From a virus, in the UHGV virus genome UHGV-1558314: a stretch of 64,000 nt of DNA. One strand, written 5' to 3'. Under the pieces are notes generated by a model. That model was given only the letters and a program-made list of their open reading frames with translations. It made no database searches and was not told the origin of the DNA. The position numbers and the translations under genes are program-made. Of the stretch, positions 1,504 through 43,587 are shown in pieces. The first letter of the stretch is position 1, and the number at the start of each line of letters is the position of its first letter.

Positions 1504-2397
1504 CTATGTCAATGCAATAAAGACATCACCAGATTGCTCAGCCTCAAGCTCTTTTTCAACTGTCTGTTGCATTGTTTGACCTTTTGACGCAAGTCTATCA
1601 AAGTTAATGCGAACATTGCCGGGCAACTTGAAGTCATATGTGCCAATGATATCTGCAAGTTCTTGCATGCATTGACCAGTGCAGTATCTCAAGAAACGCC
1701 TGTCTTCATACAATGATTGCAGTGGCACTCTTACCCAACACATCAACACCAAATCAGACCCTTCATTGTCACCAAGAATGTTCAGCTTATGACTAAATCT
1801 GTTGAAGTTATACGTGATTGTTCGTTGCAGAATGCTTTCATACGTGCCAATTTCATACATTGTCACCCACAAGTCATCTGCAATTGATGCATTTTGAGAA
1901 CCTGCAGGCCCAGCGTAGTTAAATGACACACCATTTGCCTCACTGTAGAAATTGATTGAATTGCTAAGCAGTCGTTCAAGATAGAAATTTGCACGCCGCA
2001 TTGATAACTTATGCTGCGATTCAAGTAGCTGAACATCTGATACAGCCCAGATTTGTGGCGGCAATTTGACAATTTTGTTTGCGCCATCAGTCATGTCAAT
2101 ATCGCGAACAACAAACCAGCGCTCTTCAAGAGCAGACTCAGAATGTTCAAAGAACCATTCTGCACAAGTCTCAATGATTTGTGGCATACGAGTCTTCGGA
2201 ATTGCAAATGGCAATGCACAGCCTCGTGTGACTTCTTGTACAAGTCGCTCAATAAATCGCAAGTCTATGCTGTAGTCATATCGAGAATTGATATTTTCGA
2301 CTTCAGGCTTATTGCACGCAGTTGTTGTAGCACCTTCAACTTTCCAAGAAGTTGCACCATCATTAAATTCTGCTTGTGGTTTACGATTGACTTTCAT
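1504..2397 (-). CDS. hypothetical protein (297 aa), possibly virion-associated
   Basis: Long ORF in track, co-directional and tightly packed with neighbours; no recognised motif. Confidence 0.5.
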   Translation of the reverse strand: MKVNRKPQAEFNDGATSWKVEGATTTACNKPEVENINSRYDYSIDLRFIERLVQEVTRGCALPFAIPKTRMPQIIETCAEWFFEHSESALEERWFVVRDIDMTDGANKIVKLPPQIWAVSDVQLLESQHKLSMRRANFYLERLLSNSINFYSEANGVSFNYAGPAGSQNASIADDLWVTMYEIGTYESILQRTITYNFNRFSHKLNILGDNEGSDLVLMCWVRVPLQSLYEDRRFLRYCTGQCMQELADIIGTYDFKLPGNVRINFDRLASKGQTMQQTVEKELEAEQSGDVFIALT

Positions 2398-2846
2398 AGA
2401 GTTTGTCTTACAACAAGTTGAATGACCGGCATATTGTACACGTCCATTTTGAATATGTCTTCGCCTTCTGTCATTAGCAATGCATCAAGAACCGCATTGC
2501 CAATGGGTGAATTCATAAACATTGACGTGCTATTAAGTGCCAATTCAGCCAAATATGTAGAAATATCTACATTATCGCCAGGTCGCATTTCCTGACGTAT
2601 ATAATAAGGGTCGTTTGGATTATCCAAGTAATCATTCCAGCCAAAACCATCGGGCTGCTTAGTATAAGCAATATCAGTAAAACCAAGCTGTGCTCTTATC
2701 ATCTTATCATTGTCAAGTAACTTGTACCAAACTTGGCCATCAGCAGATACCATGTAATTTGATGGCACAGTTAAGTTGTACTTTGATTTTGCTTGTGCAG
2801 CAGTTAATACGCCGCTTTCAAATGTGAAGCCAGCTGTTGCATGCAT
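2394..2846 (-). CDS. hypothetical protein (150 aa)
   Basis: ORF track; 4-nt overlap with the downstream gene typical of phage operons. Confidence 0.5.
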   Translation of the reverse strand: MHATAGFTFESGVLTAAQAKSKYNLTVPSNYMVSADGQVWYKLLDNDKMIRAQLGFTDIAYTKQPDGFGWNDYLDNPNDPYYIRQEMRPGDNVDISTYLAELALNSTSMFMNSPIGNAVLDALLMTEGEDIFKMDVYNMPVIQLVVRQTL

Positions 2847-2915
2847 AGCATTTTGTGCTCTGTAATGTTATTGAGTTACACGTGACATATGAGTCTCAAT
2901 TTTATTGTGTTTGTT

Positions 2916-2985
2916 TATCTATCAACTTGTGATTATCTCTATCTATCAACTTATGATTGTCCATCTCTTATCAAAGTTGTGATGT
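2916..2985. repeat. imperfect direct repeats (about 23-28 bp period, unit TATCTATCAACTT[G/A]TGAT)
   Basis: tatctatcaacttgtgattatctc / tatctatcaacttatgattgtccatctc / ttatcaaagttgtgatgtcaacttatggtg read directly in the intergenic region upstream (minus sense) of gene 2394..2846. Confidence 0.5.
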
Positions 2986-2989
2986 CAAC

Positions 2990-3601
2990 TTATGGTGCAA
3001 CAATCGGTCCGCCACCAGGCAGACTTGAGCATGTTTGCATGTACGAGTACAACAAGTTGCCAATGTTCTGCATAATGTTTGCAAACATAAGTGCAATGCC
3101 TCGCAAATCTGCTTCGCCTTCAAATGTGTTGATAAATGCTTGCTGAGCGCATGCAAACATTACTGGCACAGTCGATGCACTTGTCATTGCTATCACAGGT
3201 CCACCAGGCGACAAGGGCAGCACCGGTGGTGATGCTGGCACAGTTAAGTTTGTTGGAATCCATGCTGCAACTGCTGCAGCATAGGGCTTAAAGCCATTGC
3301 CAAACTTTATTGCAATGTTCTTTGGGTCTGCTTCACCTTGAAAAGTTTCTATAAGTGCTTGTCTGCCTGCTTCAAATAGAGATTGCTCAAGTGTAGCAGT
3401 TGGACCTGCAGCTATTGGACCGCCGACAGGCAAACCTGTGCAAGTTGCAATGTAGCTTGCTACACCTGTAGCAAACAATTGACTGAATTTGTTGGCAAAC
3501 TTTGATGCAATTTGTGGTCTATCAAGCTCACCTTGAAAAGTTGCAGTGTATGCTTGATATGCAATTGGCTGCACAGCAGCTTGCAATGTAGCGCCTGACA
3601 T
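2990..3601 (-). CDS. hypothetical protein with three internal repeats of about 70 aa
   Basis: ORF 2990..3664 trimmed to internal Met (MSGATLQ...) so it does not overlap the upstream gene. Motif F-x-GE-x-D...IA-x-KFAN-x-F occurs three times (TFQGELDRPQIASKFANKF; TFQGEADPKNIAIKFGNGF; TFEGEADLRGIALMFANIM). Confidence 0.45.
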   Translation of the reverse strand: MSGATLQAAVQPIAYQAYTATFQGELDRPQIASKFANKFSQLFATGVASYIATCTGLPVGGPIAAGPTATLEQSLFEAGRQALIETFQGEADPKNIAIKFGNGFKPYAAAVAAWIPTNLTVPASPPVLPLSPGGPVIAMTSASTVPVMFACAQQAFINTFEGEADLRGIALMFANIMQNIGNLLYSYMQTCSSLPGGGPIVAP

Positions 3602-3602
3602 A

Positions 3603-3887
3603 TCAATCCAACAATTGAGCAGCAGCAACTGCGCCAAGTGCTGCAGATATGAATGATTGCGCAATGTATGATAAACTCCAGCAACGTTCTATTGCATAGA
3701 GTTTTGACAAGCCACATGCAATAATGTCAAGTGTTACTGAAAGTAACGTAACTACAAGCAAATGTGTTCGCAATGGCACTTCAATTGTGTCGTATGTCAT
3801 TAGTGTTGTTGCAAATGCAATGAATGCGATTATTACGCAGTGCAGCAGTGCAAACATCAAGCGTTCAATGAAATGTTGACTGTTCAT
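3603..3887 (-). CDS. small membrane protein (two predicted TM helices)
   Basis: ORF track; hydrophobic stretches LLHCVIIAFIAFATTLM and LLVVTLLSVTLDIIACGL. Confidence 0.45.
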   Translation of the reverse strand: MNSQHFIERLMFALLHCVIIAFIAFATTLMTYDTIEVPLRTHLLVVTLLSVTLDIIACGLSKLYAIERCWSLSYIAQSFISAALGAVAAAQLLD

Positions 3888-3889
3888 AT

Positions 3890-4768
3890 TTAGTCTTGGC
3901 CTTTATCAATTGTTGCGATTTTTGATAGTGTCTCAGGCAAAAAGTTTGAGTCTTTCTTATGTGTACTGTTTGATGGCTGCTGCACTTTTGTAGGATATGT
4001 TCCAAACACAGGTGCGAGTGGACTTGTGTATGGATTGCCTTGAGCTGTTGTCTGGAGCTGCTTCATGACTTCTGCAAGATTGTCAACAACTTCTTTCACA
4101 TAGTCAAGAACATTTTGATGCGCAGTTTTGTTGTCATCTCCAACTACACAAGGCTGTTCTGATTTATCTGTGCTGCCAAAGCTCAAATGACCATCAGCAG
4201 TCATATGAATGACTCCATTTTTGTCAGCATCAGTAGTCATATGAATTGACTTGTCCTTGCGCAAATTGATGTCTGTGCCATTGTAGTGAATATGCCAGCC
4301 TTGTTCAGGTGTCCACCAAATGCCAAACTTGCCCTCTGTGCCATATCGTTCAGCATCATCATAGACAACAATCTTTGCTTTGGCGTTTTCATCACCAATG
4401 ACATCTTTTGCGATATCTGAACGAGAATCAAGATGCATCCAAGTCATATTGTAAACACCTCGACTCAAATCAAGCATAACCCAGTCACCCACAATTGGCG
4501 CATCATACATGTTCATCATGCTGCTATCTGCATAGCACCATGGCAGCTTGTCTGTAGCAATTTCATTGTCAGCAAATCGAGTAAAGCCATCAATTTGACA
4601 GCGTATACGACATTGTAACATGTCATCATCAACATCAACAACTTCACCAATGAGCTTAACTGGCATACCCTCTGTCAAAGACCCAATTGATGATGCAGTT
4701 ATTGATGCATTGTATGCTGATATCTTTTCAAACAGCTCTTCTTGAGTAACAAGCAACATATCAGACAT
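3890..4768 (-). CDS. putative baseplate spike/hub protein (gpV/gp5-like OB-fold motif)
   Basis: ORF track; YDAPIVGDWVMLDLSRGVYN resembles the P-x-VGD-x-V...G motif of gpV/gp5 N-terminal domains. Remembered motif, not searched. Confidence 0.35.
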   Translation of the reverse strand: MSDMLLVTQEELFEKISAYNASITASSIGSLTEGMPVKLIGEVVDVDDDMLQCRIRCQIDGFTRFADNEIATDKLPWCYADSSMMNMYDAPIVGDWVMLDLSRGVYNMTWMHLDSRSDIAKDVIGDENAKAKIVVYDDAERYGTEGKFGIWWTPEQGWHIHYNGTDINLRKDKSIHMTTDADKNGVIHMTADGHLSFGSTDKSEQPCVVGDDNKTAHQNVLDYVKEVVDNLAEVMKQLQTTAQGNPYTSPLAPVFGTYPTKVQQPSNSTHKKDSNFLPETLSKIATIDKGQD

Positions 4769-6198
4769 TACATTGAATCTTCATACACATTGATACGACC
4801 AAGCTTTGGTAGTTTGCTTTGGTCTGGTTCATACACAGGATTTGCAAGTGCTTTCTGTGATAAGTTGTCATCATACTTTGTTACTGCAGACCCTTTGAGC
4901 AATTGCTTTGCTCTTGAATATGCAAACTGTGGATTTGTCAATGCTGCAATTTCAACAGAATTCAAGCCATAAACATTGCCAACAGTCTTGCCAACAAGTA
5001 TTCGACTTGCTTGCATATTGATTTCAGCCAACGCATTTGCTGCAGTAGACAAAGCAAACTCTTTTGCATATTCAAGCGCTTCTTTAGCCGCTTTATTGAC
5101 TGCGTCTTTGAGCAATTGTTTGACTGATTGACCTTTCATTGTCGACACAACTTGCTGTGTAATCTTGCCGTATTTGCTGTCTTTTGCAAGCTTGACAAAT
5201 TGCTGGCCGTACGTCTCTTTCTTTTTCTCAACTGTTTCTGATGTATCAGTGTCACTAAGAATTTTTTGAGACTGCACTACAAGGCCCTTATGGCTATCTT
5301 TCATTGCTGCAAATGCAGATGAAATTGACAATGTGCCATATGACACTTTGATGTTGTTTGTCGCCATTGTAGGCTCAGCAGTGTTGTCTATGTCTTGTAC
5401 AAAATTTGCGCCAGAATCGGGCATAAATGCACATTGCCCAAAATTGAAGAGCACATACTGACCAGCATTGATTACGACTGCAATGTCATCAGGTCTTGCC
5501 ATTTGAGTTGATGATGACACGCCTTCTATGCGTGCTTGCTGAATTGCTTTGATGTCTTCACCGTAGTTTGCAACTTCTGTTCTCGTATCACCAAAACTGT
5601 GCTCTGACATACCAAGCATTTGCTCAACTTCATTGTCAAGTTTTAATGACTTGTCATCTGCAAGTTCTTCTTGGAATATGCGAACTTCTGTTACATACAC
5701 AAACATATTGAAGCGTTGCAAGTTCAGTGGTAGCACATAGACCATGCGGTCGTAGTCATATAACACTTGCTTGAGCAGTGTGTTAATTGTCGCAAATCGC
5801 CAGTCAACGCTTTCTGTCACAGTAAGCCCAATGGTTTTGTCATTCAAAATGACTTCTTTCATTGTTCGCTTATATGCGTCAGCAAGTCCTTGAATGCCTG
5901 TAAAGCAATGAAACGCAGAGTCCTGAATTGCTTGCAGCATCTTTATGACAATTTCAAGCTGTGCATATCGTGTATCATCACCAATTCGCTTCAAATACGC
6001 CAATGCGCTGTTCTTAAACTTAGCATCTGCAAGTAAACCCATTTCAGAGTCAAAGTTAAAGAACACTCTGAATGTCAAATATGTTGGGTCTTGATATGCA
6101 TTGCACAACACACCATTTATGACCTCTGGGTCAAGTGACATGAACTGGTATACACCATTGAACATGTCTATGCGTGAAGTTGCGTGATTTGATGGCAT
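4768..6198 (-). CDS. hypothetical protein (476 aa), likely virion-associated
   Basis: Long ORF in track; no recognised motif. Confidence 0.5.
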   Translation of the reverse strand: MPSNHATSRIDMFNGVYQFMSLDPEVINGVLCNAYQDPTYLTFRVFFNFDSEMGLLADAKFKNSALAYLKRIGDDTRYAQLEIVIKMLQAIQDSAFHCFTGIQGLADAYKRTMKEVILNDKTIGLTVTESVDWRFATINTLLKQVLYDYDRMVYVLPLNLQRFNMFVYVTEVRIFQEELADDKSLKLDNEVEQMLGMSEHSFGDTRTEVANYGEDIKAIQQARIEGVSSSTQMARPDDIAVVINAGQYVLFNFGQCAFMPDSGANFVQDIDNTAEPTMATNNIKVSYGTLSISSAFAAMKDSHKGLVVQSQKILSDTDTSETVEKKKETYGQQFVKLAKDSKYGKITQQVVSTMKGQSVKQLLKDAVNKAAKEALEYAKEFALSTAANALAEINMQASRILVGKTVGNVYGLNSVEIAALTNPQFAYSRAKQLLKGSAVTKYDDNLSQKALANPVYEPDQSKLPKLGRINVYEDSM

Positions 6199-6304
6199 AT
6201 TGTGTATAGTTTGCTTTCTTAATTTTTGGATATATACACATGCTCAAACTGCACAAAAAACTTCGCATCAATAACTTGATGCGAAGTGTACTCAATGTAA
6301 TATG

Positions 6305-7966
6305 CTAACGACCGTAGCTGTATGCATTTGCTTTATCAGCATTTGCTTTACGTGCATTGTTTCGTTGAGTTTGACTACGAATTGCTTTCTTATTGCCAGA
6401 TGCTGCAAGTGCATCATTGTACTGCTTAACTGCTGCATTGAGCTCGTTCACAAATTGCTGTGTATTGCATTGTTCAAGCAACAGCATGTCAGATGTCAAT
6501 TGCGCTGACTCAGTATTATCATTGAGCTGCTCCAAATCACGACAATTGTAATATGTGGTGACGTCATCATCTGTAATGCTGACACAAGTTGATGCAAATG
6601 CCACTGTAGGCTTAGCAATGTTGCATTCATATTCATAGTATTTGACGTCTTGATAGTCATATCCACCACTCAAGCGCTTAACTTTGACATTATTGCGAAC
6701 TTGTTCTACTTTCTGAATGTTTGCTATCTGTGCAAGCTGTGCATACTTAGACGCATCAATGGTTGCAACTCCAAGTGATTCAGATGCTTTAATGTCTTCA
6801 AGCAATTCATAAATTGCTGCAGCAATGTTTGATTTGATGCCTACATAATTTGCTGTTAGCTGCTGAGGCGTACGAGCTTGTTCAACAATCTTTACATTTT
6901 GACGAAGCTTAGCAAAGTTGTCAGTGCTTGTTAGCAATGCATTGTAGAGCAAAGTGTCATTTGCAGGCTCACCACCGTATTTGGCGCATAATGCATCGTT
7001 GGGCTTGCCAAACACGTCTTCAATACGATTTGCGTAGATACCAGTTGGAATTCGTGCAGCACTTCTGTTTGTCACATAGATTTCATTACCAGATTCATCG
7101 CAAATTGCTAAGTAACTGTTGTCTTCTGTGTATACTCTGCAAGTTTTGCCTTTGATATTTTTGAGCTTATATTTGCGATTGTTACTGTCAAACCATACGC
7201 TGTCGCTTTTAATGACATTGCCATCAGTGTCATAATTTGCAAACCACTGAAAAGTTTTAGAATTGAAACTCTTAGACTGCACTGCATCATTAGGTTCCCA
7301 AGTTGCATTTGGCAGCTGACGAGCATGCGTAGTCAATTCATATCGTCCATCGTCAGCATTCCATGTTTTTGTAATGATATGCGCCTTTGTTTTGTCTGTC
7401 CATACAGTGCAAGTGCCATCAGATGTTCGCTCAGAATACATTTCGCCAATAGGACTGATTTCCCAAAAGATGTCACCAGTTTTGCCAGCAGTCTGTATAA
7501 ACTTGCGATTGTCTTCACCAGTGATTCTATCGATGCGACCAACAAGTTCATATTTGCTTACAGTGTATTCATAGCCATTGTCGTCATATGCAATAGTGTG
7601 TTTGAGTCTGCACTGATATTTGCCATTGTCGGTATACAACTCCTGATAAACTTCACGGCCTTTGCTGTCATATGACCACTTGCCTAACAGTTGACCAAGT
7701 GAATTGTATTCAAGCCAAGTGCCTGACTGCTTGCCATCATTGTCCCAAGTTCGAATCATAGCAAGTTGAGCGTTATCGAACCACTGTTCGTCTTTAATGA
7801 CGACGCCTGCAGCATTCGTAGTAGTTCTACTACGCAAGCATTTGTCTACAAGACTTCCGTCTTTAAGTGTTTGCCAATGCGTCGTCGTGACTTTTTGTGC
7901 GTCTGCGTTTACATGCATAAGCACACTTGCCGCTAATACAAGCAGCAACATTTTTAGTGTTTTCAT
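6305..7966 (-). CDS. secreted repeat protein with N-terminal signal peptide and MORN-like repeats
   Basis: N-terminus MKTLKMLLLVLAASVLMHVNADAQ has basic n-region, hydrophobic core and A-x-A-like site. Body has W/Y-x-Y-x-x-x-G repeats (TWLEYNSLGQLLGKWSYDSKGREVYQELYTDNGKY). Confidence 0.55.
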   Translation of the reverse strand: MKTLKMLLLVLAASVLMHVNADAQKVTTTHWQTLKDGSLVDKCLRSRTTTNAAGVVIKDEQWFDNAQLAMIRTWDNDGKQSGTWLEYNSLGQLLGKWSYDSKGREVYQELYTDNGKYQCRLKHTIAYDDNGYEYTVSKYELVGRIDRITGEDNRKFIQTAGKTGDIFWEISPIGEMYSERTSDGTCTVWTDKTKAHIITKTWNADDGRYELTTHARQLPNATWEPNDAVQSKSFNSKTFQWFANYDTDGNVIKSDSVWFDSNNRKYKLKNIKGKTCRVYTEDNSYLAICDESGNEIYVTNRSAARIPTGIYANRIEDVFGKPNDALCAKYGGEPANDTLLYNALLTSTDNFAKLRQNVKIVEQARTPQQLTANYVGIKSNIAAAIYELLEDIKASESLGVATIDASKYAQLAQIANIQKVEQVRNNVKVKRLSGGYDYQDVKYYEYECNIAKPTVAFASTCVSITDDDVTTYYNCRDLEQLNDNTESAQLTSDMLLLEQCNTQQFVNELNAAVKQYNDALAASGNKKAIRSQTQRNNARKANADKANAYSYGR

Positions 7967-8273
7967 TGTTTGTTGTTATTTGAGATGGTTTTGGGCAAGC
8001 TGCAAAGAATGGATTGCATTTGTAGTTGTTCAGTCGCAAATCATCATACTGTGACTTGTCAATGTATTGCACTGTGACTTTGTTAAACGCTAGTTTGACG
8101 CCAAATCGAGCAGCGCATTGGCCATATAACATATAACGATAATTGACGTTCTTACGAGATATGCTGCTGTCCTTATTAAAGGATATTTTTCGTGTGCTTA
8201 TGTATGCAAATGTAACATCGCCGTCAAGACATGTAAACTTGCGTGCATACACATATACTAGAACAGTTTTCAT
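7863..8273 (-). CDS. doubtful small ORF
   Basis: ORF 7863..8375 trimmed to internal Met; its 3' end overlaps the signal-peptide gene start by about 100 nt and it is Cys-rich. Confidence 0.2.
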   Translation of the reverse strand: MKTVLVYVYARKFTCLDGDVTFAYISTRKISFNKDSSISRKNVNYRYMLYGQCAARFGVKLAFNKVTVQYIDKSQYDDLRLNNYKCNPFFAACPKPSQITTNNENTKNVAACISGKCAYACKRRRTKSHDDALANT

Positions 8274-8277
8274 AGCA

Positions 8278-9543
8278 TTACCGATATTTGATGTGCCATG
8301 GCCGCATAAATGCGCATGCATTAATGCAGTTTGCATACACATATCGAAGCATTGCAATTGCATTGCTGACATCACTTACTGCAGCAGGCTCATAATTTGC
8401 ATGGCCGCCAATCTTAGCATTCAAAGCATCACGAGTAATTGGTGCAAGACTCCCATTTCTGAGTTCAGGCCATAACTGTGCTGCAAGTGATGCATTGTTT
8501 ACAATGGCTTGCTTATGAAATATTGCATTTTCTCGTGCGTTCTTTTTGCAATTTGACTGCCATATGCCATACACAAAGTATGGCTGATGCATAACCACAC
8601 AATTGCCAGACAGCTGCAAAATTGCATGCACAAAGTCGATTGCAGTGTCTGCATCAAGACCCTTTGTTTTGCAATCATTGTAATCGATATTGTACAACTT
8701 AAGCCACTCTGCATCGAACATCTCATATGGGTCATTGATGTAAATGTGCTTGAACCATAGCAATTCTGCATCAGAAGACATCACTGCAATGTCTACTTGT
8801 GCAATACGCTGCCAGTTGTCATCAAATATGCTGCTTGGGATGCTGTCATGCTTTACGCCACTGTAGCATGTCATTGCTGCAGTGCAATGCAGCATAGGCC
8901 AAACTTGAAGTCGCTTGCAGCATTCTGCAAAAACATCTGCGCATGCATTGACATCAGCAAGGGCGTCATGAGCAGATTCAAAGTCATGACCGAACAAACC
9001 TCGATATGCATCGACAAGTTTTGCAGACCCATTGCTCAAATGCTTTGCAAAGCCTTTGTACAGAAACTTTGTGTCAATGACGGGATATTGAGTCATGAAG
9101 TTTGCAGTTTTGCAACGCTGACATTCATAATCGAGAATCGTCAAGTCATATGGTGCGTTGTGTGCAATAAGATGCGTTACACCAAAACGCTCCAAGTCAA
9201 GTCTGAACTGGTCAAGCACTTTTTGCATTGGCTCTCCATGTTCATACAACTGCGCCATAGTATGACCATGCACAGCAAGAGCTTCTGCTGGCATATCATC
9301 AAAACTGCTGTTGAATCTGCCAAGTGGCATTACAAGCATGTTGTTTCGATGCAGTTCTATAATGTTGCCCGCATAGTCAAGTCTGAAGATTTTGTATGCA
9401 AGCTGAACTACAAATGACATCTCTTGCAAATCAATGACATCTTGCTTATGCCAGTAATCGACTGCTAACCCTGTTGACTCTACATCAAACGCTGCGCATA
9501 CAAGCTCTGTGATATGCTCTTTGCTTTTATTGATATGTTCCAT
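8278..9543 (-). CDS. DEDDh-type 3'-5' exonuclease (DnaQ/DexA-like) with C-terminal extension
   Basis: Exo motifs AFDVESTGL (D-x-E), LIAHNAPYDLTIL, SAHDALADVNAC (H-x4-D) in the N-terminal 200 aa. Confidence 0.65.
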   Translation of the reverse strand: MEHINKSKEHITELVCAAFDVESTGLAVDYWHKQDVIDLQEMSFVVQLAYKIFRLDYAGNIIELHRNNMLVMPLGRFNSSFDDMPAEALAVHGHTMAQLYEHGEPMQKVLDQFRLDLERFGVTHLIAHNAPYDLTILDYECQRCKTANFMTQYPVIDTKFLYKGFAKHLSNGSAKLVDAYRGLFGHDFESAHDALADVNACADVFAECCKRLQVWPMLHCTAAMTCYSGVKHDSIPSSIFDDNWQRIAQVDIAVMSSDAELLWFKHIYINDPYEMFDAEWLKLYNIDYNDCKTKGLDADTAIDFVHAILQLSGNCVVMHQPYFVYGIWQSNCKKNARENAIFHKQAIVNNASLAAQLWPELRNGSLAPITRDALNAKIGGHANYEPAAVSDVSNAIAMLRYVYANCINACAFMRPWHIKYR

Positions 9544-10635: not shown

Positions 10636-10664
10636 ATTATATATTGATATATTACAACATTTGT
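10636..10664 (-). promoter_or_regulatory. conserved phage promoter motif (ATGTTGTAATAT...TATAAT)
   Basis: Minus-sense AAATGTTGTAATATATCAATATATAATATAAAACCTCTACAACAATG; the -10 TATAAT lies about 20 nt before the ATG. Confidence 0.45.
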
Positions 10665-10710
10665 TGTCAATTTGCACAATTGTTGTTAACAAAATGCATT
10701 ACATTGACAA

Positions 10711-10744
10711 AAAAATAAAGGCTCAGTTTGTATAACTGAGCCTC
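10711..10744 (-). terminator. rho-independent terminator after thyA
   Basis: 10-bp stem AGGCTCAGTT/AACTGAGCCT with 5-nt loop, followed on the minus strand by TTTATTTTTTTG. Confidence 0.55.
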
Positions 10745-10763
10745 TTGAAATGACACGAACTTA

Positions 10764-11822
10764 TTACTGCTTCAAGCCTGTGAACAGTTCATACTTGAAT
10801 GCAGGCCCTGCTGTGTAAGCCTCAAAGTAGAAGTCACCAATATTGATGCTTGCAATAGCGTCATCGACAGCTTTCTTGTAGCCTACACGTTCAATTGTCT
10901 GCTTATCGCATTTACGCCAATATGTGCTGTGCATCATAAGCGTGGGTGATGCAGCATAGTCTACTGCAAGCTGTTGTTTTGCAGTGTCAATGTGATGTTC
11001 ATAGATGTGCACATCATTGCCAGTCCAAATGAACTCTCTTGCCGCACAGTTAGTCAATGTTGCAACAATATGTGTAAGCAATGCATATGATGCGATATTG
11101 ATGGGCACACCAAGACACATGTCACAACTACGCTGAGTAAGCGCACAGTCAAGCCACATGCTTGGTACTTGAGCAGAATCAAGGCATTCTGCAGAACAAT
11201 CATGCACAAGCATGCTATCATTAGCAATCTGAATTCGTTCTTCAAGAGTCATTGGCTGACAATTGAACTGAAACAGCATATGACATGGCGGCAATGCCAT
11301 CTGAGACATTTGTGCAGGATTCCATGCAGACACGACTTTGTAGCGGCCAGTTGGATTGATGACAATGTCTTTAATGCAAGTTGCAAGTTGGTCATATCCA
11401 CTGTCATTGAAGTTGCGCCACTGATACCCATAGATAGGTCCGCAATCACCATACTCAGGCTTGCTGAATTTTGTGTTATGCAGTTCTGTGCACCAAGTTT
11501 CAAAGTCGACATCTTCACCTGGATGCAGTTTACGCCAATGACGATATGCATCCTGATGCCAGAACTTTGTAATACCAAGCGTGTCAAGCGTTTTTACATT
11601 TGTATCACCTGACATAAACCACAGAAGTTCTCCAATGACACCCTTGACAAACATTCTCTTGGATGTCAACAGTGGAAAGCCTTTACGCAAATCAAATCGC
11701 ATTGATTCTACAAACAATGACTTTGTGCGAGGCATGTTTTCACGAGCAGGCTCCTTAAATCTGCCATGTTCAATAACATTGTTAAGTACTCTCAAGTACT
11801 CAGTGTCGTGTTTGATATTCAT
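10764..11822 (-). CDS. thyA: thymidylate synthase (ThyA family, with insertion)
   Basis: FPLLTSKR, VVSAWNPAQ, catalytic ALPPCHMLFQF, and LGVPINIASYALL with Asn at the base-specificity position (uracil-specific). Confidence 0.8.
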   Translation of the reverse strand: MNIKHDTEYLRVLNNVIEHGRFKEPARENMPRTKSLFVESMRFDLRKGFPLLTSKRMFVKGVIGELLWFMSGDTNVKTLDTLGITKFWHQDAYRHWRKLHPGEDVDFETWCTELHNTKFSKPEYGDCGPIYGYQWRNFNDSGYDQLATCIKDIVINPTGRYKVVSAWNPAQMSQMALPPCHMLFQFNCQPMTLEERIQIANDSMLVHDCSAECLDSAQVPSMWLDCALTQRSCDMCLGVPINIASYALLTHIVATLTNCAAREFIWTGNDVHIYEHHIDTAKQQLAVDYAASPTLMMHSTYWRKCDKQTIERVGYKKAVDDAIASINIGDFYFEAYTAGPAFKYELFTGLKQ

Positions 11823-14387: not shown

Positions 14388-14404
14388 TCTAAATGAGATT
14401 TAGA
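14388..14404 (-). promoter_or_regulatory. palindromic leader element TCTAAATGAGATTTAGA abutting the helicase start codon
   Basis: Perfect 7-bp inverted repeat with 3-nt spacer at positions -1 to -17 from the ATG; identical element at 21342-21358. Confidence 0.5.
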
Positions 14405-14626
14405 TTATGTTCGAATATATGAGAACATATATTATTTGTAAAGATATAATACTACAAACAGCACACATTTGCACTTTGACATAACTGATTGAGTATCAAT
14501 CAATTATGAGTTTATAAAAGTTTTTCAAAAGTAGGGTGTTGTTGTTTGAGTAGAGTGTTGTTAATGCTGTCAGCTGTCTTGTTAGCATTATCGATTGCTT
14601 GCAAACTATCAGCCGTCATAGAACAT

Positions 14627-15047: not shown

Positions 15048-15929
15048 CTATCGTTTGAATTTGATGAAGTGTTCAGCATCGAGGCCCTCAAATACATACG
15101 GGTCAAGAGTTTCCCAGAAGTTTGAGTATGTCGTTGTCTTTGCAATGCTTGTTTGCTTTGACAAGTTCATATTTGGGTAGCCAAGCATTGCATAGTGTCG
15201 CTCATATATGTGCATTGACGTCGCATTATGCACATATGCGCCAAGCTTAAGACCAAGTTCATTTGCGACAAGTTCTTGCAACAAAGTGAATGCAAACTGG
15301 TCGTTGCAAAAGCCCCAAATGACATCATTGCTTCGCATGTATGTTGTCAAGTACAGCTTATCACCACGAACATTGAAAACAAGATTCAATGTGCATGGCA
15401 TGTCTTTGCCAGTGTAGTTTGCATATTGCGGCTCATAAATGCTAATAACTGCTCGTCTTGTGCATTCATGATTTCGCAAACGTTCAATGACATCTGCAAT
15501 CTGCTTGTGCCAAATTGCGCCATACTGTGAATTGACATTGACACCATCGTCGCTGAATTGCTTCCAACGAGGCAAATAACGTTCAATGCATTCAACTGCA
15601 GGATTGGCTGTCATGTACCACGCAAATTCTGCAGCAGCATTGAGCTTTTTCCATGGTCGTACGTCAATCTTGATTTGCCGCTGTGAAGGGTCCTGAATAA
15701 CTACAGACACATTCAGCAATTCTTTTGTTCGAGTCACTGTTTGTGCATTGTTGCCCTTTGATTCTACAAACTCACCTCTACAATGAAGTTCATACAAAAT
15801 TGAGCGAAATGCTTCTGTTGCAGTGTTTTCAATGATTGTCGTCTGTTGATAACATAAATTTGACGACAATGCTTCAGCATCATTGTACTTTATGCTGTCA
15901 TTGTCATAAGGTGAATTTTTTGTGTGCAT
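15048..15929 (-). CDS. deoxycytidylate 5-hydroxymethylase (T4 gp42-like, ThyA fold)
   Basis: Catalytic Cys in DMPCTLNLVF; YMRSNDVIWGFCNDQFAF closely resembles gp42 NMRSNDVVFGFRNDYAW, with Asp at the position equivalent to ThyA Asn177 / gp42 Asp179. Confidence 0.7.
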   Translation of the reverse strand: MHTKNSPYDNDSIKYNDAEALSSNLCYQQTTIIENTATEAFRSILYELHCRGEFVESKGNNAQTVTRTKELLNVSVVIQDPSQRQIKIDVRPWKKLNAAAEFAWYMTANPAVECIERYLPRWKQFSDDGVNVNSQYGAIWHKQIADVIERLRNHECTRRAVISIYEPQYANYTGKDMPCTLNLVFNVRGDKLYLTTYMRSNDVIWGFCNDQFAFTLLQELVANELGLKLGAYVHNATSMHIYERHYAMLGYPNMNLSKQTSIAKTTTYSNFWETLDPYVFEGLDAEHFIKFKR

Positions 15930-17412: not shown

Positions 17413-20400
17413 TTAACAAATTGATGACGTGCCATCAGTATTTGCTACAACTGTCAATGCACTATCAAACTCATCTTGTTGCAATACATGGTCAACTATG
17501 AGTGTTTTGCGAATTGCAGAAAGCTTGGTAAGCAACTGCATCAACACTTGCTGATAATTGATATTGTTGACATCATGCTCAGCGCCAACAATCTGCCCAT
17601 TGCTAAGCTTGCCACTGATTTCGTCAATGAGCAAGATGTTGCCCACTTTGTTTAAGCGTTGAGTCAAAATGAGATGCACGATTGCAAGACCTGCGAAAGT
17701 TCCTTCCATGCCAGACATTTGACTTACACTTCGAATTGACTTCGAGCCCATCAAGTCAATCATCTTCAACACATTGTTGTCATTGATGTCAAAGAACACT
17801 CGGTAGTTCAATGAATCCAGCAAATCATTGAGCTGTGCATTCAGTGATGTTGCAATTGCTGCAAAGACATATGAAACTAAGCCTCGTTTGCTTGTGCACT
17901 GCTTATATGCATTGTACACCAAGTTTGCAATGTTCCACTTTTTCGAAGCTTGCAAATCTTTCTTGAGAGCTTCAATTCGCACATTGTTTGCTGATAAGTC
18001 TGCTTGCATTGTTGCAATTTCTGCATTGATGCTTAGCAGTTTTGAGTTCGCTTCAGTTTCATGCTGCTTAGCATCATCAATGTCGACTTGCAATGCAGCA
18101 TTTGTTGTAATATGCTGCTGAGTTTGCTGTGCATGTTCAAGTGCAAATGCTGCAGCAGTCTTATCAATCTCAAGTTGTTTAAGCGCAGACTCATATGTCG
18201 CTTTCTTATCATACTCTGCTTGAGCAATTTCAAGTTCAGCATTTATTGCAGCCAGTTCTGATTCTACTGTAGATTTTGATTGCAATACATCTTGCTTTGC
18301 TTGTTCAGCTTTACGTTTGATGTCTGCAAGTTGATTTGTGATATCTGCAATTTGCATTTTGACTGCTTCGACTTCAAGCAATGTTGCTGCAGTAGCCATT
18401 GGTTGTGCAATGAATGCATCTAAGTCTCTTTGCGCATTGACTACAGTTCTCTGCAAATCATTGAGCTTTTCTGCATGCATGTCATATGCTGCTTTGTGTG
18501 CTGGATTCAGTGCAGCAATTATTGCATTTGAATCTGTAACATCTATGATTGCTGCTTGCAGTTGCTCAATTTCATACTTCAAATTGCCAATTTTGACAAC
18601 ATTCTCATTGAATTGCTCTGTCTTTTGCGCACATTCTTGACGCAACTTAGCAAGCTCAGTTGACAACCACAGCTTGTATGCTTGTCCTGTGCCAGATGTC
18701 AAGTCATTTGTACATACAGGGCATTTGTCGTTTTCAAGTTGCTTTTGCTTGTCTATAACATTGTCGATGTTTGTTTTTGCAGCAGATATTTCTGTTCTAA
18801 GTGCATTTTGAACAGTGTTGATGTCTTCAATTTGCTTTTGCAAAGCATCTATTTTTGCCCGAGTGTTTGCATTGTACGACTTGCCAAGATTTATCAGCAC
18901 AGAATCAATGTGCTGCTTTGCTGCATCATATGCAAGCTTTGATTCATCAAGCTTTGTTCTGTACAATGACTCTGCATGCGCAACTTCTTTCTGCACTTTT
19001 GCAGATAGCTCATTCTGTTTTGTAAGCAGCTCAGCATATGTATTGTGCAGCTGTGAGCCAGATGCTATGACATTTGTGTATGCTGTATTAGCTTCATTGT
19101 CAATATTAGTGAGTTGCTGCTCAATCTGTGCTTTTGCTGTTTGCAACTTAGACATATCTTGCAATGCAAGTGCAGCAATGTCAAGCTCAACTTTGTGAAT
19201 CTTTGCAATGATGCCATCGATATTTGCTGTTGCATCTTCTATAGTTAAGATGTCTGCAGGAATTTGATGTAGTTTCTTTGAGAGCTCTTCTACTTTTGCA
19301 CGAGCTTTTGTAAGCTTCGCGGACCACTCTTTTTGATTATCTTGTCGTAACTGCAAAGAGTAATTGAGTTCATTGCAAGTTGTATTGAGAGACTCAAGTT
19401 CTGCTTTTATTGCAACATCAGTCAATGCGGGCTTACTAAGGCCATCAAACAATGCAGCCTTTGCAGCATCATTAGAATTGCCAAGCTGTACAAATGTATT
19501 GATGCCAAGAGTATCAAGTAGCCAGTCATTCAATGAATTTGAGTCCATTGCAATGATTTGGTCAAGTAGTGTCTGATTGATACAAACATATCGCGACAAT
19601 TCCCAGATAGAGCCAAAGATTGCATATAGCGTGTCTTTGATTTCATGCTGCGGCACTACGTAGTCATCTGACAATCTTACAAGCTGAACAGTCTCATTGA
19701 CTGCTGACACGTTATCTCGCCATGAGCCATCTGCATTTATTCGAGAACCTCGTTTGAATTTGCGTTCAAGTGTTCGAATCAATTTGTAGTGAACATTTTG
19801 ACCTGCTACTACATGCACAAAGACACAAGAAGCTTCAAGCTTATCATATGACTCATTGTCAATCAATTTGTCATTGAAGTATGTCAAAGCGTTCTGCTTT
19901 GTTGCTGCAGAAGACTGTTCAGCGTCAATAAAGCCAGTCAGCAGCCATTTGATAAGTCTGAAGATTGTAGTCTTGCCATTGCCATTGTTGCCTCTAACTT
20001 GTGTAAGCTGTGCAAGATTGTCAAAGCTGACATCAACATCTTTCAATGCCATGAACTGATTTGCTTTAACATTTTGAATGACATATTTTGCAACTTCAGT
20101 GTCAAAAGACAATTTATCAATTTGTTCATCAATCAATGACTTGAACATGTCAACAAACTGCTGAGCATCTTCAGTAGCAACTATGGCATTGCGTTCAATG
20201 TATGCATTGACCCAGTCAAGTGCAGCGTCTTTAAGCCATTCAGCAGTTTGAACCTTTTGCAGCAAATTGTCGCCATTTGCGTCTACAGCATTGATTGAAT
20301 CAATGACAGCAGAATCATACAGAATGTCAATTGCAGCAACAACATATGAACTTACAAGATTCTGTGCAATGCGCTCAACAATACCAGACAGTTCGGGCTT

Positions 20401-21339
20401 TGTGACCTTTGACTTGATTTTGATTTTATTGATGCGGCCAGGGTTGATGAGTGCAATCTTGTCTGTTTTGACATCATTATCAATTGTGATTGTATGATAA
20501 TGCACAAGCTGCTCAAGTGGATGCCACTCTACCACAATTCGCTTGTTGTCAATATCGATGTCAAGCAAGTTGTAGCCATGTTCTGCAGTACCATGCTGTA
20601 TTGCAGTGTCATTCAACAAATAGTCGCCTTCACCAAAATCTCTGACAATTGGCGAGCCGCAATATGTTAATGTCTTATCACCAGCAACCCATATTGCATG
20701 CTTATGAATGTCACCCATTGCAACAAAGTTGCTATTAAATTGCATTGCATCTATACGACTGTCATTGTCACCACGAACAATACAATCATCAAAGTTGACA
20801 CAATTCTTTACAGGGTCATGGAACAGCTCAATGACACACATTGATGACAATGCTGCAATCTGCGATTCATCAAGTGATGCCCAAGGCGAATATGTGCCAC
20901 CAGACCACTTCTCATTTTGAGCCCATACTGCAGCAGCAAAACCAGGTGCAAGCAGTTCAACTCTTGAACTGTTGATATACTTGATTCGCTTGTCATCAAT
21001 TGCAGTTACAAGCTTGTCAATGCTATCTGTCCACTGCATTTGTGAACCATCACCAGCATCAAATGTGTTATCACGTTGCTTCAAATCATGATTGCCAGCA
21101 GTAATGACAATTTGAAGCTTGTCATTGACTTCAAGCATGCCTTTGAGCAGCTTAACAAACAGCGACTCTTCAAGTGAATTGCTATTCCAATGCTCAAACA
21201 CGTCGCCGACAATGAATACAAACTCAACTGACTTTGCTTTGTCAATTAGTTGTTTGTTGATGTGCTCATATTCTACGAAACGTCGTAAATGACCTTGTCG
21301 AACATTATATTGAATGTCTGCTATGTGAAGTGCTTTCAT
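17413..21339 (-). CDS. fused Mre11/SbcD nuclease - Rad50/SbcC ATPase (1308 aa)
   Basis: N-terminal phosphoesterase motifs VFIVGDVFEHW, VITAGNHDL, GDIHKH; Walker A GNNGNGKTTIFRLIKWLL; coiled-coil with zinc hook DKCPVCTNDL; signature SGMEGTFAGLAIV; Walker B LLIDEISGKLS. One uninterrupted ORF. Confidence 0.75.
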   Translation of the reverse strand: MKALHIADIQYNVRQGHLRRFVEYEHINKQLIDKAKSVEFVFIVGDVFEHWNSNSLEESLFVKLLKGMLEVNDKLQIVITAGNHDLKQRDNTFDAGDGSQMQWTDSIDKLVTAIDDKRIKYINSSRVELLAPGFAAAVWAQNEKWSGGTYSPWASLDESQIAALSSMCVIELFHDPVKNCVNFDDCIVRGDNDSRIDAMQFNSNFVAMGDIHKHAIWVAGDKTLTYCGSPIVRDFGEGDYLLNDTAIQHGTAEHGYNLLDIDIDNKRIVVEWHPLEQLVHYHTITIDNDVKTDKIALINPGRINKIKIKSKVTKPELSGIVERIAQNLVSSYVVAAIDILYDSAVIDSINAVDANGDNLLQKVQTAEWLKDAALDWVNAYIERNAIVATEDAQQFVDMFKSLIDEQIDKLSFDTEVAKYVIQNVKANQFMALKDVDVSFDNLAQLTQVRGNNGNGKTTIFRLIKWLLTGFIDAEQSSAATKQNALTYFNDKLIDNESYDKLEASCVFVHVVAGQNVHYKLIRTLERKFKRGSRINADGSWRDNVSAVNETVQLVRLSDDYVVPQHEIKDTLYAIFGSIWELSRYVCINQTLLDQIIAMDSNSLNDWLLDTLGINTFVQLGNSNDAAKAALFDGLSKPALTDVAIKAELESLNTTCNELNYSLQLRQDNQKEWSAKLTKARAKVEELSKKLHQIPADILTIEDATANIDGIIAKIHKVELDIAALALQDMSKLQTAKAQIEQQLTNIDNEANTAYTNVIASGSQLHNTYAELLTKQNELSAKVQKEVAHAESLYRTKLDESKLAYDAAKQHIDSVLINLGKSYNANTRAKIDALQKQIEDINTVQNALRTEISAAKTNIDNVIDKQKQLENDKCPVCTNDLTSGTGQAYKLWLSTELAKLRQECAQKTEQFNENVVKIGNLKYEIEQLQAAIIDVTDSNAIIAALNPAHKAAYDMHAEKLNDLQRTVVNAQRDLDAFIAQPMATAATLLEVEAVKMQIADITNQLADIKRKAEQAKQDVLQSKSTVESELAAINAELEIAQAEYDKKATYESALKQLEIDKTAAAFALEHAQQTQQHITTNAALQVDIDDAKQHETEANSKLLSINAEIATMQADLSANNVRIEALKKDLQASKKWNIANLVYNAYKQCTSKRGLVSYVFAAIATSLNAQLNDLLDSLNYRVFFDINDNNVLKMIDLMGSKSIRSVSQMSGMEGTFAGLAIVHLILTQRLNKVGNILLIDEISGKLSNGQIVGAEHDVNNINYQQVLMQLLTKLSAIRKTLIVDHVLQQDEFDSALTVVANTDGTSSIC

Positions 21340-21341
21340 AT

Positions 21342-21358
21342 TCTAAATGAGATTTAGA
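21342..21358 (-). promoter_or_regulatory. palindromic leader element TCTAAATGAGATTTAGA just upstream of the Mre11-Rad50 start codon
   Basis: Same 17-bp palindrome as at 14388-14404, at -3 to -19 from the ATG. Confidence 0.5.
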
Positions 21359-21386
21359 TTATATGTTGATATTGTACAACATGCAA
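21358..21386 (-). promoter_or_regulatory. sigma-70-like promoter TTGCAT-N17-TATAAT with conserved TTGTACAA core
   Basis: Minus-sense TTGCATGTTGTACAATATCAACATATAAT, about 18 nt upstream of the ATG at 21339. Confidence 0.55.
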
Positions 21387-21418
21387 AATGCACTTGCATT
21401 TTGATACAACGTATGTCA

Positions 21419-25124: not shown

Positions 25125-25153
25125 GAGGATGGATTTTATATGTTGATATTGTA
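25125..25153 (-). promoter_or_regulatory. sigma-70-like promoter TTGCAT-N17-TATAAA (second copy of conserved motif)
   Basis: Minus-sense TTGCATGTTGTACAATATCAACATATAAA; spacer identical to the copy at 21358-21386. Confidence 0.5.
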
Positions 25154-25195
25154 CAACATGCAAAATGTATTTGCATTTTGATACAACATATATTG

Positions 25196-30874: not shown

Positions 30875-30970
30875 TGAGCTTTTGCACAACATATGTTGTT
30901 AAAATATCATCATTGTACAACATAAAGCGCATATTTGCACGTTGTGTTGCTAAAAATATTGTTATTGTAC

Positions 30971-37337: not shown

Positions 37338-37398
37338 GTTATTTGTATATGTATTGTGCAACATGCATATTCATATTGTATATGAATATGATACAACA
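37338..37398 (-). promoter_or_regulatory. two tandem copies of the conserved promoter motif upstream of the SSB gene
   Basis: Minus-sense TTCGCATGTTGTATCATATTCATATACAAT and ATATGCATGTTGCACAATACATATACAAAT. Confidence 0.45.
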
Positions 37399-37416
37399 TG
37401 CGAATATCATTTGCAC

Positions 37417-39916: not shown

Positions 39917-40213
39917 TCATTGTTCATGCCAGTGTCCTGTCAAGTCAAACATTGCTTCACGTTGTGCCTTTGTGCATTTTGCAATGTCGTCAATAATCCA
40001 ACGCGGAGTGCTTCCCCAGTTGCAATATCGAATATAGCCTAATTGCTCAAGTTCTGCAACTGGGTCATACGCAAGACTAATTGGCATATTGTATGCATCA
40101 AACAGTTCTGGTTTGAGCTTTTGCAACAATATGTCAGCAGTTTTGTTATGTTCAGCAAAGCCACAGTAGGTGACTTGACCTGATGAGCTTAACCAGCAAG
40201 ATTGCATTGTCAT
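39917..40213 (-). CDS. hypothetical protein (98 aa)
   Basis: ORF track. Confidence 0.4.
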   Translation of the reverse strand: MTMQSCWLSSSGQVTYCGFAEHNKTADILLQKLKPELFDAYNMPISLAYDPVAELEQLGYIRYCNWGSTPRWIIDDIAKCTKAQREAMFDLTGHWHEQ

Positions 40214-40572
40214 TCATTTGGTTGAGGCTCAATTCGCATCACTACACGCACAGAATCTCTATAAGGATAAACTGACGCAACAATCAAATACCAACGTTTG
40301 TCGTCGACTTCGCCATTTGACTTGATGTATGGCGCAGAAGTAGTAATGTATCGAGCATGTTTGAATGTCGTATCTACTCTTGCAGCAAGACAGGTAGAAT
40401 CAGTCGTTTGAGCATGCCACACATCAATTTCTGGTAAATACGTGTTATGAGCATTGCATACACTATCAACAAATTCTCGTGGTTGCAAAGTGACAGTTGA
40501 CACATATATTGGCTTAACTGCAGCGCATGCAATGCATGCAATTGCAATGAACAACAATGTAAATCGTTTCAT
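40210..40572 (-). CDS. small secreted or lipoprotein-like protein
   Basis: N-terminus MKRFTLLFIAIACIACAA is a signal peptide with Cys near the predicted cleavage region. Confidence 0.45.
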   Translation of the reverse strand: MKRFTLLFIAIACIACAAVKPIYVSTVTLQPREFVDSVCNAHNTYLPEIDVWHAQTTDSTCLAARVDTTFKHARYITTSAPYIKSNGEVDDKRWYLIVASVYPYRDSVRVVMRIEPQPNE

Positions 40573-40886: not shown

Positions 40887-41183
40887 CTACAAAAAGCAAT
40901 GCACCATAAAACCCAAGAACATAATTATTGCAGGCTGCATGATGCAATACATAAAGAACTGTGCAGCAATCGGCAATTCATTGAACTTGTTGACTGTGTC
41001 ATGATTCTTGAACAATGCCAGTACAAATGATATCCCAATTGCATGCTTAAGCGATAACGCAGTCAATGCGGGCCACACAGGCATCACAAACCACTCCCAG
41101 AAGTTCATAATAATGCAGCCATTCAGAATATAGCCTAACAGCATGAACATAATGCATGCAACAGTTGTCAGAAAGTTTTTCAT
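40887..41183 (-). CDS. small membrane protein (3 TM; holin-like candidate)
   Basis: ORF track; three hydrophobic segments in a 98-aa protein. Confidence 0.4.
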   Translation of the reverse strand: MKNFLTTVACIMFMLLGYILNGCIIMNFWEWFVMPVWPALTALSLKHAIGISFVLALFKNHDTVNKFNELPIAAQFFMYCIMQPAIIMFLGFMVHCFL

Positions 41184-43514: not shown

Positions 43515-43587
43515 TGTTGTAGAGGTTTGTATACTATATTGATATATGATAATTGTACTACAAATTTATCAAATTTGCACTGATTTA

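Follow-up and report, generated by a model that had tools for sequence, protein, structure and literature searches.

A predicted exported accessory protein with MORN_2-like repeats in a large gut phage with a probable Bacteroidota host

T4 Spackle and Imm, T5 Llp and Cor are exported exclusion or receptor-masking proteins of coliphages; they are early proteins of approx. 80-100 amino acids (aa) and are found in the periplasm or envelope. Exported repeat proteins are also known from bacteria; in Fusobacterium, signal peptides were found on 87% of 697 MORN2 genes (PMC4222103). In Bacteroidetes, cleavage by signal peptidase I (SPI) exposes Gln in most substrates, and this Gln is then cyclised to pyroglutamate (PMC5837995). 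Phages of Porphyromonas gingivalis encode proteins with signal peptides that follow this "Q-rule", which has been read as an adaptation to Bacteroidota secretion (Matrishin et al. 2023, PMC10367356). Here we describe a gene for a 553-aa protein on the minus strand (6305..7966) of a 64,000-nucleotide stretch of the virus genome UHGV-1558314; this whole stretch is referred to as the window. Overall, we lean slightly towards the reading that the gene encodes a lineage-specific accessory protein which is exported and would act as a soluble periplasmic binder made before the virion genes are expressed.

The gene, its leader and the probable host

The coding sequence and its predicted leader are placed as follows.

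6305..7966, minus strand: coding sequence of the 553-aa exported protein, from the open reading frame (ORF) list, with the stop codon at 6305-6307
7898..7966, minus strand: predicted Sec/SPI leader, residues 1-23 (MKTLK, MLLLVLAASVLM, HVNADA), with cleavage predicted before Q24

Comparison with a 95%-identical variant in locus L001 (21.5 nonsynonymous and 62.5 synonymous changes) gave a ratio of nonsynonymous to synonymous substitution rates (dN/dS) of 0.08 for the coding sequence, which is within the range found for neighbouring gap-free genes (0.04 for the baseplate hub, 0.09 for thymidylate synthase and 0.14 for p224). The reading frame is thus a genuine gene under purifying selection. As the GC content of the coding sequence, both overall and at third codon positions (GC3), is like that of the neighbouring genes, a recent acquisition is unsupported. 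Among 13 approx. 95%-identical variants, residues 233 (7266-7268) and 469 (6558-6560) each appear as five different amino acids (S/C/R/H/Q and V/S/A/I/N, respectively), and these two positions may be under diversifying selection.

The original prediction had described the N-terminus of this protein (MKTLKMLLLVLAASVLMHVNADAQ) as a typical Sec signal peptide. Judged by manual criteria for the positively charged (n), hydrophobic (h) and cleavage (c) regions and by conservation, this anatomy is present and the N-terminus is exactly as had been quoted. The n-region (MKTLK) has a net charge of +2, the uncharged h-region (MLLLVLAASVLM) has 12 residues, which falls within the 7-15 residues expected of SPI leaders, and the c-region (HVNADA) carries Ala at -3 and -1; this layout recurs in two homologues. 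The quoted peptide was, however, too long, as Q24 is the predicted first residue of the mature protein. The 10-residue Kyte-Doolittle mean of the h-region is 3.0, which ranks third among the N-termini of approx. 75 ORFs in the window; as 12 residues are too short, the h-region would not serve as a membrane anchor. Beyond the N-terminus no second hydrophobic segment was found (best 19-residue Kyte-Doolittle window, 0.76). A lipobox ([LVI][ASTVI][GAS]C) is not present and there is no Cys in residues 1-42, so the N-terminus is not that of a lipoprotein processed by signal peptidase II; the leaders of the homologues P0004 and P0005 do contain Cys, outside a lipobox context and not conserved. A census of approx. 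70 genes in the window revealed this single SPI-type leader and one lipoprotein-like leader (40210..40572), and the earlier remark that signal peptides are rare among phage genes thus holds locally.

Conservation of the leader was assessed at two levels. Within the population, the ratio of nonsynonymous to synonymous polymorphism (pN/pS) over codons 1-35 is 0.06 in the frame of the coding sequence, as compared to 1.3 and 0.29 in the two other frames, and the leader region is therefore translated and constrained. Between lineages, the leaders of P0004 (MMKRNLQR-ILFSMLFMCMIMTA-HTCFA/QKVETTYWQT, where the slash marks the predicted cut) and P0005 (MPKSNPYMKK-ILLMCCLMAVATGAVA/QEVSVTYWQT, with AVATGAVA before the cut) differ from the 553-aa protein in their residues (29-38% identity), while the n/h/c layout and the Ala-Gln junction are kept. 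A23 and Q24 are invariant alignment columns in all three clusters of the family and adjoin its most conserved block. Based on the conserved layout, the invariant A/Q columns and the low pN/pS, cleavage is predicted at A23/Q24, and we consider it likely, from sequence evidence, that the 553-aa protein is exported and cleaved.

This likelihood has to be weighed against the reading that the leader is not used, either because translation starts internally at M17 or because the leader is not recognised, in which case the protein would be a cytoplasmic MORN_2/YwqK-like binder, e.g., one with an immunity- or antitoxin-like function. Public gene callers placed four different starts on one sequence, giving proteins of 553, 548, 539 and 537 aa, and calls of 537-548 aa on identical sequences would fit a shorter, cytoplasmic product; such disagreement is to be expected in the absence of a Shine-Dalgarno signal. 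The name given by NCBI to MORN_2 proteins is "YwqK family antitoxin", and YwqK of Bacillus subtilis is a cytoplasmic protein encoded beside its toxin gene. No toxin gene adjoins the gene described here, however, the neighbours being an exonuclease gene, a small ORF and baseplate genes, so the arrangement is not that of a YwqK-type antitoxin. Moreover, codons 1-16 show synonymous or hydrophobic-conservative substitutions, and both the A/Q junction and the n/h/c pattern persist at 29-38% identity despite differing residues; in the distant lineage L002, the frame opened by the upstream ATG shares 4 nt with the exonuclease gene, as is typical of coupled starts. Leader conservation argues for M1 as the start, and we regard a cytoplasmic protein as a distinctly unlikely outcome.

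With Gln at +1 and a host that is most likely a member of the Bacteroidota, the protein has the features of a Q-rule substrate, the second of them as deduced here from four lines of evidence. A Shine-Dalgarno motif was found within 20 nt upstream of the start in none of 44 window genes, and the gene leaders are A-rich (A at -12 and at -13 in 31 of the 44), a pattern typical of Bacteroidota-like translation initiation. Secondly, an N-terminus of the form MAKxxWxxxSPxSGxGN is common to three fibre-like proteins encoded in succession.

46823-47437, 47496-48095 and 48167-52495, minus strand: three consecutive fibre-like proteins with this common N-terminus, one of them of 1442 aa

This N-terminus matches the BACON domain (E 2.9e-8 and 5.7e-4), with one protein passing the Pfam threshold. 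Thirdly, the closest cultured relatives, as judged by the helicase and by the downstream neighbour p476, are the Chryseobacterium phages MA9V-1 and MA9V-2, the Tenacibaculum phages PTm1, PTm5 and pT24, one Flavobacterium phage and phage PAU; the host assignment rests in part on these Flavobacteriia-infecting relatives. Finally, human gut metagenomes (according to the sample name) and IMG/VR contain near-identical contigs of 174-181 kb. That the window comes from a phage, as the original prediction held, was confirmed by a gp13-like neck protein, a gp5/V-type baseplate hub and the relationship to PAU, MA9V-1 and PTm1; the phage is most likely a large (about 175-181 kb) PAU-like myovirus of the human gut. 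The conserved A/Q junction itself provides sequence-only support for a Bacteroidota host of this uncultured phage lineage.

MORN_2-like repeats and the C-terminal region

The mature protein can be divided into two halves of different character.

7067..7897, minus strand: mature N-terminal beta-hairpin repeat region, residues 24-300, as outlined by AlphaFold2 (AF2), Foldseek and a turn motif
7655..7825, minus strand: sequence-detectable MORN_2 part, residues 48-104, approx. 2.5 repeats, from hhalign and phmmer
6308..7066, minus strand: C-terminal region, residues 301-553, which aligns end to end with P0004

The earlier description had the signal peptide followed by MORN/YwqK-like repeats of the form W-x-Y-x-x-x-G. 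The remote similarity to MORN_2 was upheld, whereas the exact motif was found just once (residue 97). The element that recurs is aromatic-x(1-3)-[DN]-G, with five copies in residues 24-300 (TWDNDG, LYTDNG, AYDDNG, TWNADDG and NYDTDG) and none in residues 301-553 (shuffle mean 0.93; P = 0.0004). A bona fide MORN_2 protein (P0007; Pfam E 1.2e-20) matched residues 61-133 with E 2.6e-4 in a phmmer search of 1.84 billion representatives, and comparison of the family profile (alignment A2) with P0007 by hhalign gave a probability of 93.9% (E 1.5e-7) over residues 48-104; profile comparison thus places the protein in remote homology to MORN_2 (Pfam PF07661, "MORN repeat variant"). Matches to the Pfam model itself were below its gathering threshold of 29.6 bits, both for the N-terminal domain (11.5 bits, E 0.4) and for P0004 (17 bits, E 0.0065), and the full-length 553-aa protein gave no MORN_2 match in Pfam at E 1. 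A home-made hidden Markov model of the MORN_2 unit found 2 marginal units. The most conserved block of the family, as seen in the invariant columns of A2, begins at residue 24 and reads QKVxTTxWQTLKxGSLVxKCLRSR.

Fold prediction, which had been proposed as a check, agreed with a MORN-like hairpin-repeat class at low confidence. AF2 gave a mean predicted local distance difference test score (pLDDT) of 33 from the single sequence and of 42.5 from a 6-row alignment, in which only residues 22-110 exceeded 60. The latter model has approx. 9 beta-hairpins up to residue approx. 300, followed by a mostly helical C-terminal half. When it was compared to BFVD with Foldseek, the best matches were nearly all MORN-repeat or "MORN variant" proteins, with low template modelling (TM) scores for a low-confidence model; matches in PDB were other hairpin-repeat sheets, e.g., Rhs/YD shells and OspA. 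As the model is weak, the fold matches are read only as indicating a beta-hairpin repeat class. Homology to Rhs/YD-repeat proteins and OspA was rejected (TM-scores <= 0.31). Overall, these data support a MORN-like hairpin-repeat class for the N-terminal half, and its likeness to MORN_2 is remote but real.

The C-terminal region was modelled by AF2 as mostly helical with a basic tail (pLDDT < 50). No relatives of these approx. 250 aa were found in Pfam, PHROGs, NCBIfam, PADLOC or PDB. The C-terminus is not barrel-like, and a type IX secretion sorting domain (of the Por_Secre_tail/TIGR04183 type) gave no Pfam or NCBIfam match even at E 10.

Family distribution, gene neighbourhood and transcription unit

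The family is small. An exhaustive phmmer search of the 1.84 billion representatives identified just two further clusters (P0004 and P0005), and the family thus consists of three 50%-identity clusters among approx. 15 billion proteins. P0004 (532 aa) is a full-length homologue with 29% identity by BLASTP (35% over the stretches matched by phmmer; E 9e-47), and P0005 is a 142-aa fragment with 38% identity. Profile scans of a 5.8-billion-protein database, IMG/VR and JGI metagenomes added no family members, and no relative was found in the 185,579 species-representative bacterial and archaeal genomes of GTDB. Likewise, megablast and tblastn searches of 50,697 GenBank phages gave no match, the full protein returned nothing usable from Pfam, PHROGs, NCBIfam and PADLOC, single-sequence and profile searches of PDB sequences gave chance-level matches only, and neither the 553-aa protein nor P0004 matched a family among the PADLOC-DB defence models at E 1.

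The gene lies at the boundary between a replication module and a baseplate module.

8278..9543, minus strand: DEDDh/RNase_T-type exonuclease gene (PHROG 192, Pfam RNase_T), upstream of the 553-aa gene
4768-6198, minus strand: p476, the downstream neighbour, 476 aa, which has no Pfam or PHROG match

The order exonuclease, 553-aa gene, p476 and gp5/V-type hub is kept in the distant lineage L002. In Chryseobacterium phage MA9V-1, the exonuclease gene is followed by the p476 homologue and the hub; no gene intervenes, and the gap measures 168 bp. The block around p476 (proteins of approx. 800, approx. 200 and approx. 535 aa, p476 and the hub) was found in many large uncultured phages (loci L010-L029) as well as in PAU (gp255) and MA9V-1; in approx. 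14 more distant IMG/VR relatives, p476 stands in this conserved baseplate block with no leader-bearing gene upstream. The 553-aa gene is missing from the baseplate module of MA9V-1, PAU and these approx. 14 relatives. As MA9V-1 has no gene between the exonuclease gene and the p476 homologue and the more distant relatives have no leader-bearing gene upstream of p476, the 553-aa gene is a lineage-specific insertion at the module boundary, and, like a moron, it is inserted between genes that are conserved in related phages. Between the two lineages, the flanking proteins show 58, 67 and 79% identity as compared to 29% for the 553-aa protein, which thus diverges 2-3 times faster than its flanks; long-term divergence is fast, yet the protein is constrained within the population.

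These data also bear on whether the protein is associated with the virion or baseplate, its N-terminus being a pro-peptide or a membrane-interacting element rather than a Sec leader. The next two genes downstream do encode a conserved baseplate-module protein (p476) and the gp5/V-type hub. A virion role is nevertheless unlikely, as none of the 20 or more related phages examined has the gene in its conserved baseplate module; furthermore, a strong terminator precedes the baseplate genes in both lineages, the protein evolves 2-3 times faster than its structural neighbours, and Gln at +1 fits processing by signal peptidase. We regard this alternative as very improbable.

The transcriptional setting was examined through the following features.

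6260..6287, minus strand: intrinsic-terminator-like hairpin from a terminator scan (12-bp stem, 4-nt loop, TTTTTTG), starting 18 nt past the stop codon of the 553-aa gene
7863..8132, minus strand: candidate small ORF "orfX", 89 aa from the ATG at 8132 (start possibly at 8252 or 8273), overlapping the first 104 nt of the 553-aa coding sequence
10649..10676, minus strand: promoter-like motif TGCAAAT-N13-TGTTGTAATAT at the head of the unit that ends with the 553-aa gene
10717..10745, minus strand: terminator-like hairpin (12-bp stem and T-run) closing the preceding unit, just upstream of the promoter-like motif
10649-10676, 14446-14473, 21371-21398, 25148-25175, 30912-30939, 37388-37415 and 43552-43579, all minus strand: promoter-like copies

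In L002, a hairpin of other sequence with a T6 run is found at the equivalent place after the homologue. On the upstream side, the start codon of the L002 homologue overlaps the exonuclease gene by 4 nt (1034-2302 and 2299-3897), while 35 bp separate the two genes in L005 (L005:1304-1338). As the genes abut in L002 and L005, co-transcription is likelier than a promoter of its own, and the exonuclease gene and the 553-aa gene are probably co-transcribed; no convincing promoter was seen directly before the 553-aa gene, which in both lineages is followed by a strong terminator. In the window, the two genes are separated by a 311-bp spacer, which is filled by the orfX stretch. The orfX frame has a pN/pS of 0.10, as compared to 0.85 in a second frame, and the third shows no synonymous change (four variants). 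The stretch is missing in the near-identical variant L005 and in L002; it is an insertion/deletion polymorphism, and no orfX homologue was found in L002, L006 or L007. Read from the ATG at 8273, the extended form of orfX is interrupted in L001 by an in-frame stop at codon 5. These data suggest that orfX is an unannotated small ORF and an optional insertion. Given its coding signature and the natural variant without the stretch (L005), the spacer was rejected as a private promoter region.

The unit that starts from 10676 comprises small genes, p243, the exonuclease gene and, as its last member, the 553-aa gene. The motif TGCAART-N7-13-TRTWGTANNAT has 7 exact matches in the window, all on the coding strand, as compared to 0 in 100 shuffles (extended consensus approx. 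TGCAAAT..TGCATGTTGTACAATATCAACATAT). Other copies with nameable downstream genes precede the Rad3-like helicase, the SbcCD-like nuclease and a pair of SSB and helicase genes, and none of these copies stands ahead of a recognisable virion gene. The motif is unlike the Bacteroides -33/-7 consensus. The Bacteroides -7 motif TAnnTTTG was not enriched in the window (59 matches as compared to 58.6 expected) and provides no promoter evidence, sigma-70-type promoter-like matches were at chance level, and a candidate second promoter motif (GTTTGTACATAT) is enriched (28 versus 12) but ambiguous in its placement. Scanning the window for Rfam families and tRNAs gave no matches. Overall, the balance tips modestly towards expression of the 553-aa gene with the DNA-metabolism (early or middle) genes, insulated by the terminator from the baseplate operon.

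Three further observations concern these DNA-metabolism genes. An identical 21-nt leader (ATAATCTAAATCTCATTTAGA) stands directly before the starts of the Rad3-like helicase and the SbcCD-like nuclease (14388-14404 and 21342-21358, minus strand); it contains a perfect 7-bp hairpin (TCTAAAT-CTC-ATTTAGA) and could be a shared translational operator. The gene at 17413-21339 (minus strand) encodes one 1308-aa protein with Metallophos and AAA_23/SbcC-like parts (PHROG 35725, E 7e-113), which has the appearance of an SbcD-SbcC fusion nuclease. Hydroxymethylated, glycosylated bases in the phage DNA are hinted at by two paralogues of the thymidylate synthase family (PHROG E 4e-85 and 6e-49) together with a beta-glucosyltransferase-like gene (10764-11822, 15048-15929 and 22983-24158, minus strand).

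Proposed role and comparison with known systems

We propose that the 23-residue leader would take the pre-protein to the Sec translocon, that SPI would cut at A-D-A/Q (A23/Q24), and that Gln24 would then probably be cyclised to pyroglutamate, like most Bacteroidota SPI substrates. The mature protein of approx. 530 aa would stay soluble in the periplasm, as a lipobox, further hydrophobic segments, a type IX C-terminal domain and a barrel-like C-terminus are all lacking. Its MORN_2-like hairpin scaffold would form a binding surface, with the C-terminal half as a family-specific, largely helical domain. As the last gene of a DNA-metabolism unit, with a terminator before the baseplate genes, it would be made before virion assembly, and it would act in the envelope of the infected cell, where it may protect or condition the envelope, e.g., by excluding superinfecting phages or by blocking an envelope-acting factor of the host or of a competitor.

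Whether the protein would remain soluble in the periplasm, rather than be exported further, is in our judgement evenly balanced. One form of further export would take it to the outer membrane surface, into vesicles or into the medium, where it would act outside the infected cell, e.g., as an adhesin-like binder. Fusobacterium MORN2 proteins have been described as surface-associated or present in vesicles (PMC4222103, PMC10434195), the nearest MORN_2 protein (P0007) has a further match to NF033566, an adhesin family of Leptospira (E 2e-9), and the hypervariable residues 233 and 469 could mark an exposed interaction surface. However, the protein has neither the lipobox nor the C-terminal features expected for such export, and its sequence provides for no known way across the outer membrane; action outside the cell is therefore rated as improbable.

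The original prediction had named superinfection exclusion, receptor masking and lysis control as possible functions of an exported phage protein. Export is supported by leader anatomy and the invariant A/Q junction, whereas none of the proposed functions has support from homology, no match pointing to exclusion, receptor-masking or lysis-control proteins. Lysis control is the least likely of them, as the gene is located approx. 32 kb from the candidate lysis region and inside a DNA-metabolism unit.

39287-39901, 40210-40572 and 40887-41183, minus strand: candidate lysis region with a Peptidase_C1-like (papain-like, E 1.4e-10) protein, a lipoprotein-like protein (120 aa, beginning MKRFTLLFIAIACIAC) and a small membrane protein, respectively

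A periplasmic lysis factor, whether spanin-like or an antiholin or lysis-inhibition sensor like T4 RI, would be exported as predicted here, and the C-terminal half of the 553-aa protein is predicted to be helical. At 553 aa, though, the protein has several times the size of known spanins or RI, and it lacks a C-terminal or uncleaved N-terminal transmembrane domain. Its 12-aa h-region followed by an AXA site, together with the absence of a lipobox and of a C-terminal hydrophobic segment and a location outside the lysis cassette, is unlike i-, o- and u-spanins. We give a lysis factor the lowest probability of the alternatives considered.

For an early, exported, fast-diverging accessory protein, exclusion or protection is by analogy the most natural guess, and we put it forward tentatively, as the most plausible role but one that is less likely than not to be right. 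Several points count against the reading of the protein as an exported periplasmic binder made early. The leader assignment is based on manual criteria and conservation, public gene callers gave four different starts, and initiation at M17 would delete the leader. The host phylum is deduced from genomic features and relatives, not from a spacer of a clustered regularly interspaced short palindromic repeats (CRISPR) array or an isolate. The MORN_2 match is sub-threshold in Pfam and spans only approx. 57 residues, and a poor model (pLDDT 42.5) with low-TM fold matches suggests a repeat class at most. The promoter motif is a sequence pattern which does not give timing, and in the window the exonuclease gene and the coding sequence are separated by a candidate small ORF. 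Finally, the sequence points to no specific target, and the exclusion or protection role is drawn from analogy.

Envelope manipulation of the host by gut Bacteroidota phages is little understood, and no characterised exported phage exclusion protein in Bacteroidota was found in the literature searched. As an example of phage adaptation to the phylum-specific route via Sec, SPI and glutaminyl cyclase, the product of the 553-aa gene is a clean candidate. It represents an unannotated ORFan accessory family; phage Q-rule secretory proteins and exported MORN2 proteins have both already been described. That it founds a new periplasmic exclusion or envelope-protection family of large gut Bacteroidota phages, in which the MORN_2-like scaffold binds a component of an incoming phage or an envelope-acting effector of the host or of a competitor, is a speculative extension which we hold to be rather unlikely.

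When compared to the systems introduced above, the 553-aa protein shares features with each of them. With the exported coliphage exclusion proteins it would share the proposed functional class, by analogy, but there is no similarity in sequence or size and no match in the phage collection or PHROGs. B. subtilis YwqK-type proteins have in common with it a MORN_2-type scaffold as protein binder, while only the phage protein has a leader and its gene adjoins no toxin gene. The Q-rule proteins of P. gingivalis phages are, by their description, likewise phage-encoded and carry an SPI leader that exposes Gln; they come from temperate prophages integrating at tRNA-Pro in an oral host (PMC10367356), whereas the 553-aa protein belongs to a large, probably lytic gut myovirus, and none of them was among the matches to the 553-aa protein. 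Exported bacterial MORN_2 (PF07661) proteins, like the 553-aa protein, have a Sec leader followed by approx. 23-residue hairpin repeats with aromatic...[DN]G turns. Compared to these, the 553-aa protein has only approx. 2.5 sequence-recognisable repeats (11.5-17 bits in Pfam as compared to the 29.6 bits of the threshold), is encoded by a phage and lacks bacterial homologues among 185,579 genomes, and carries an additional C-terminal domain of approx. 250 aa.

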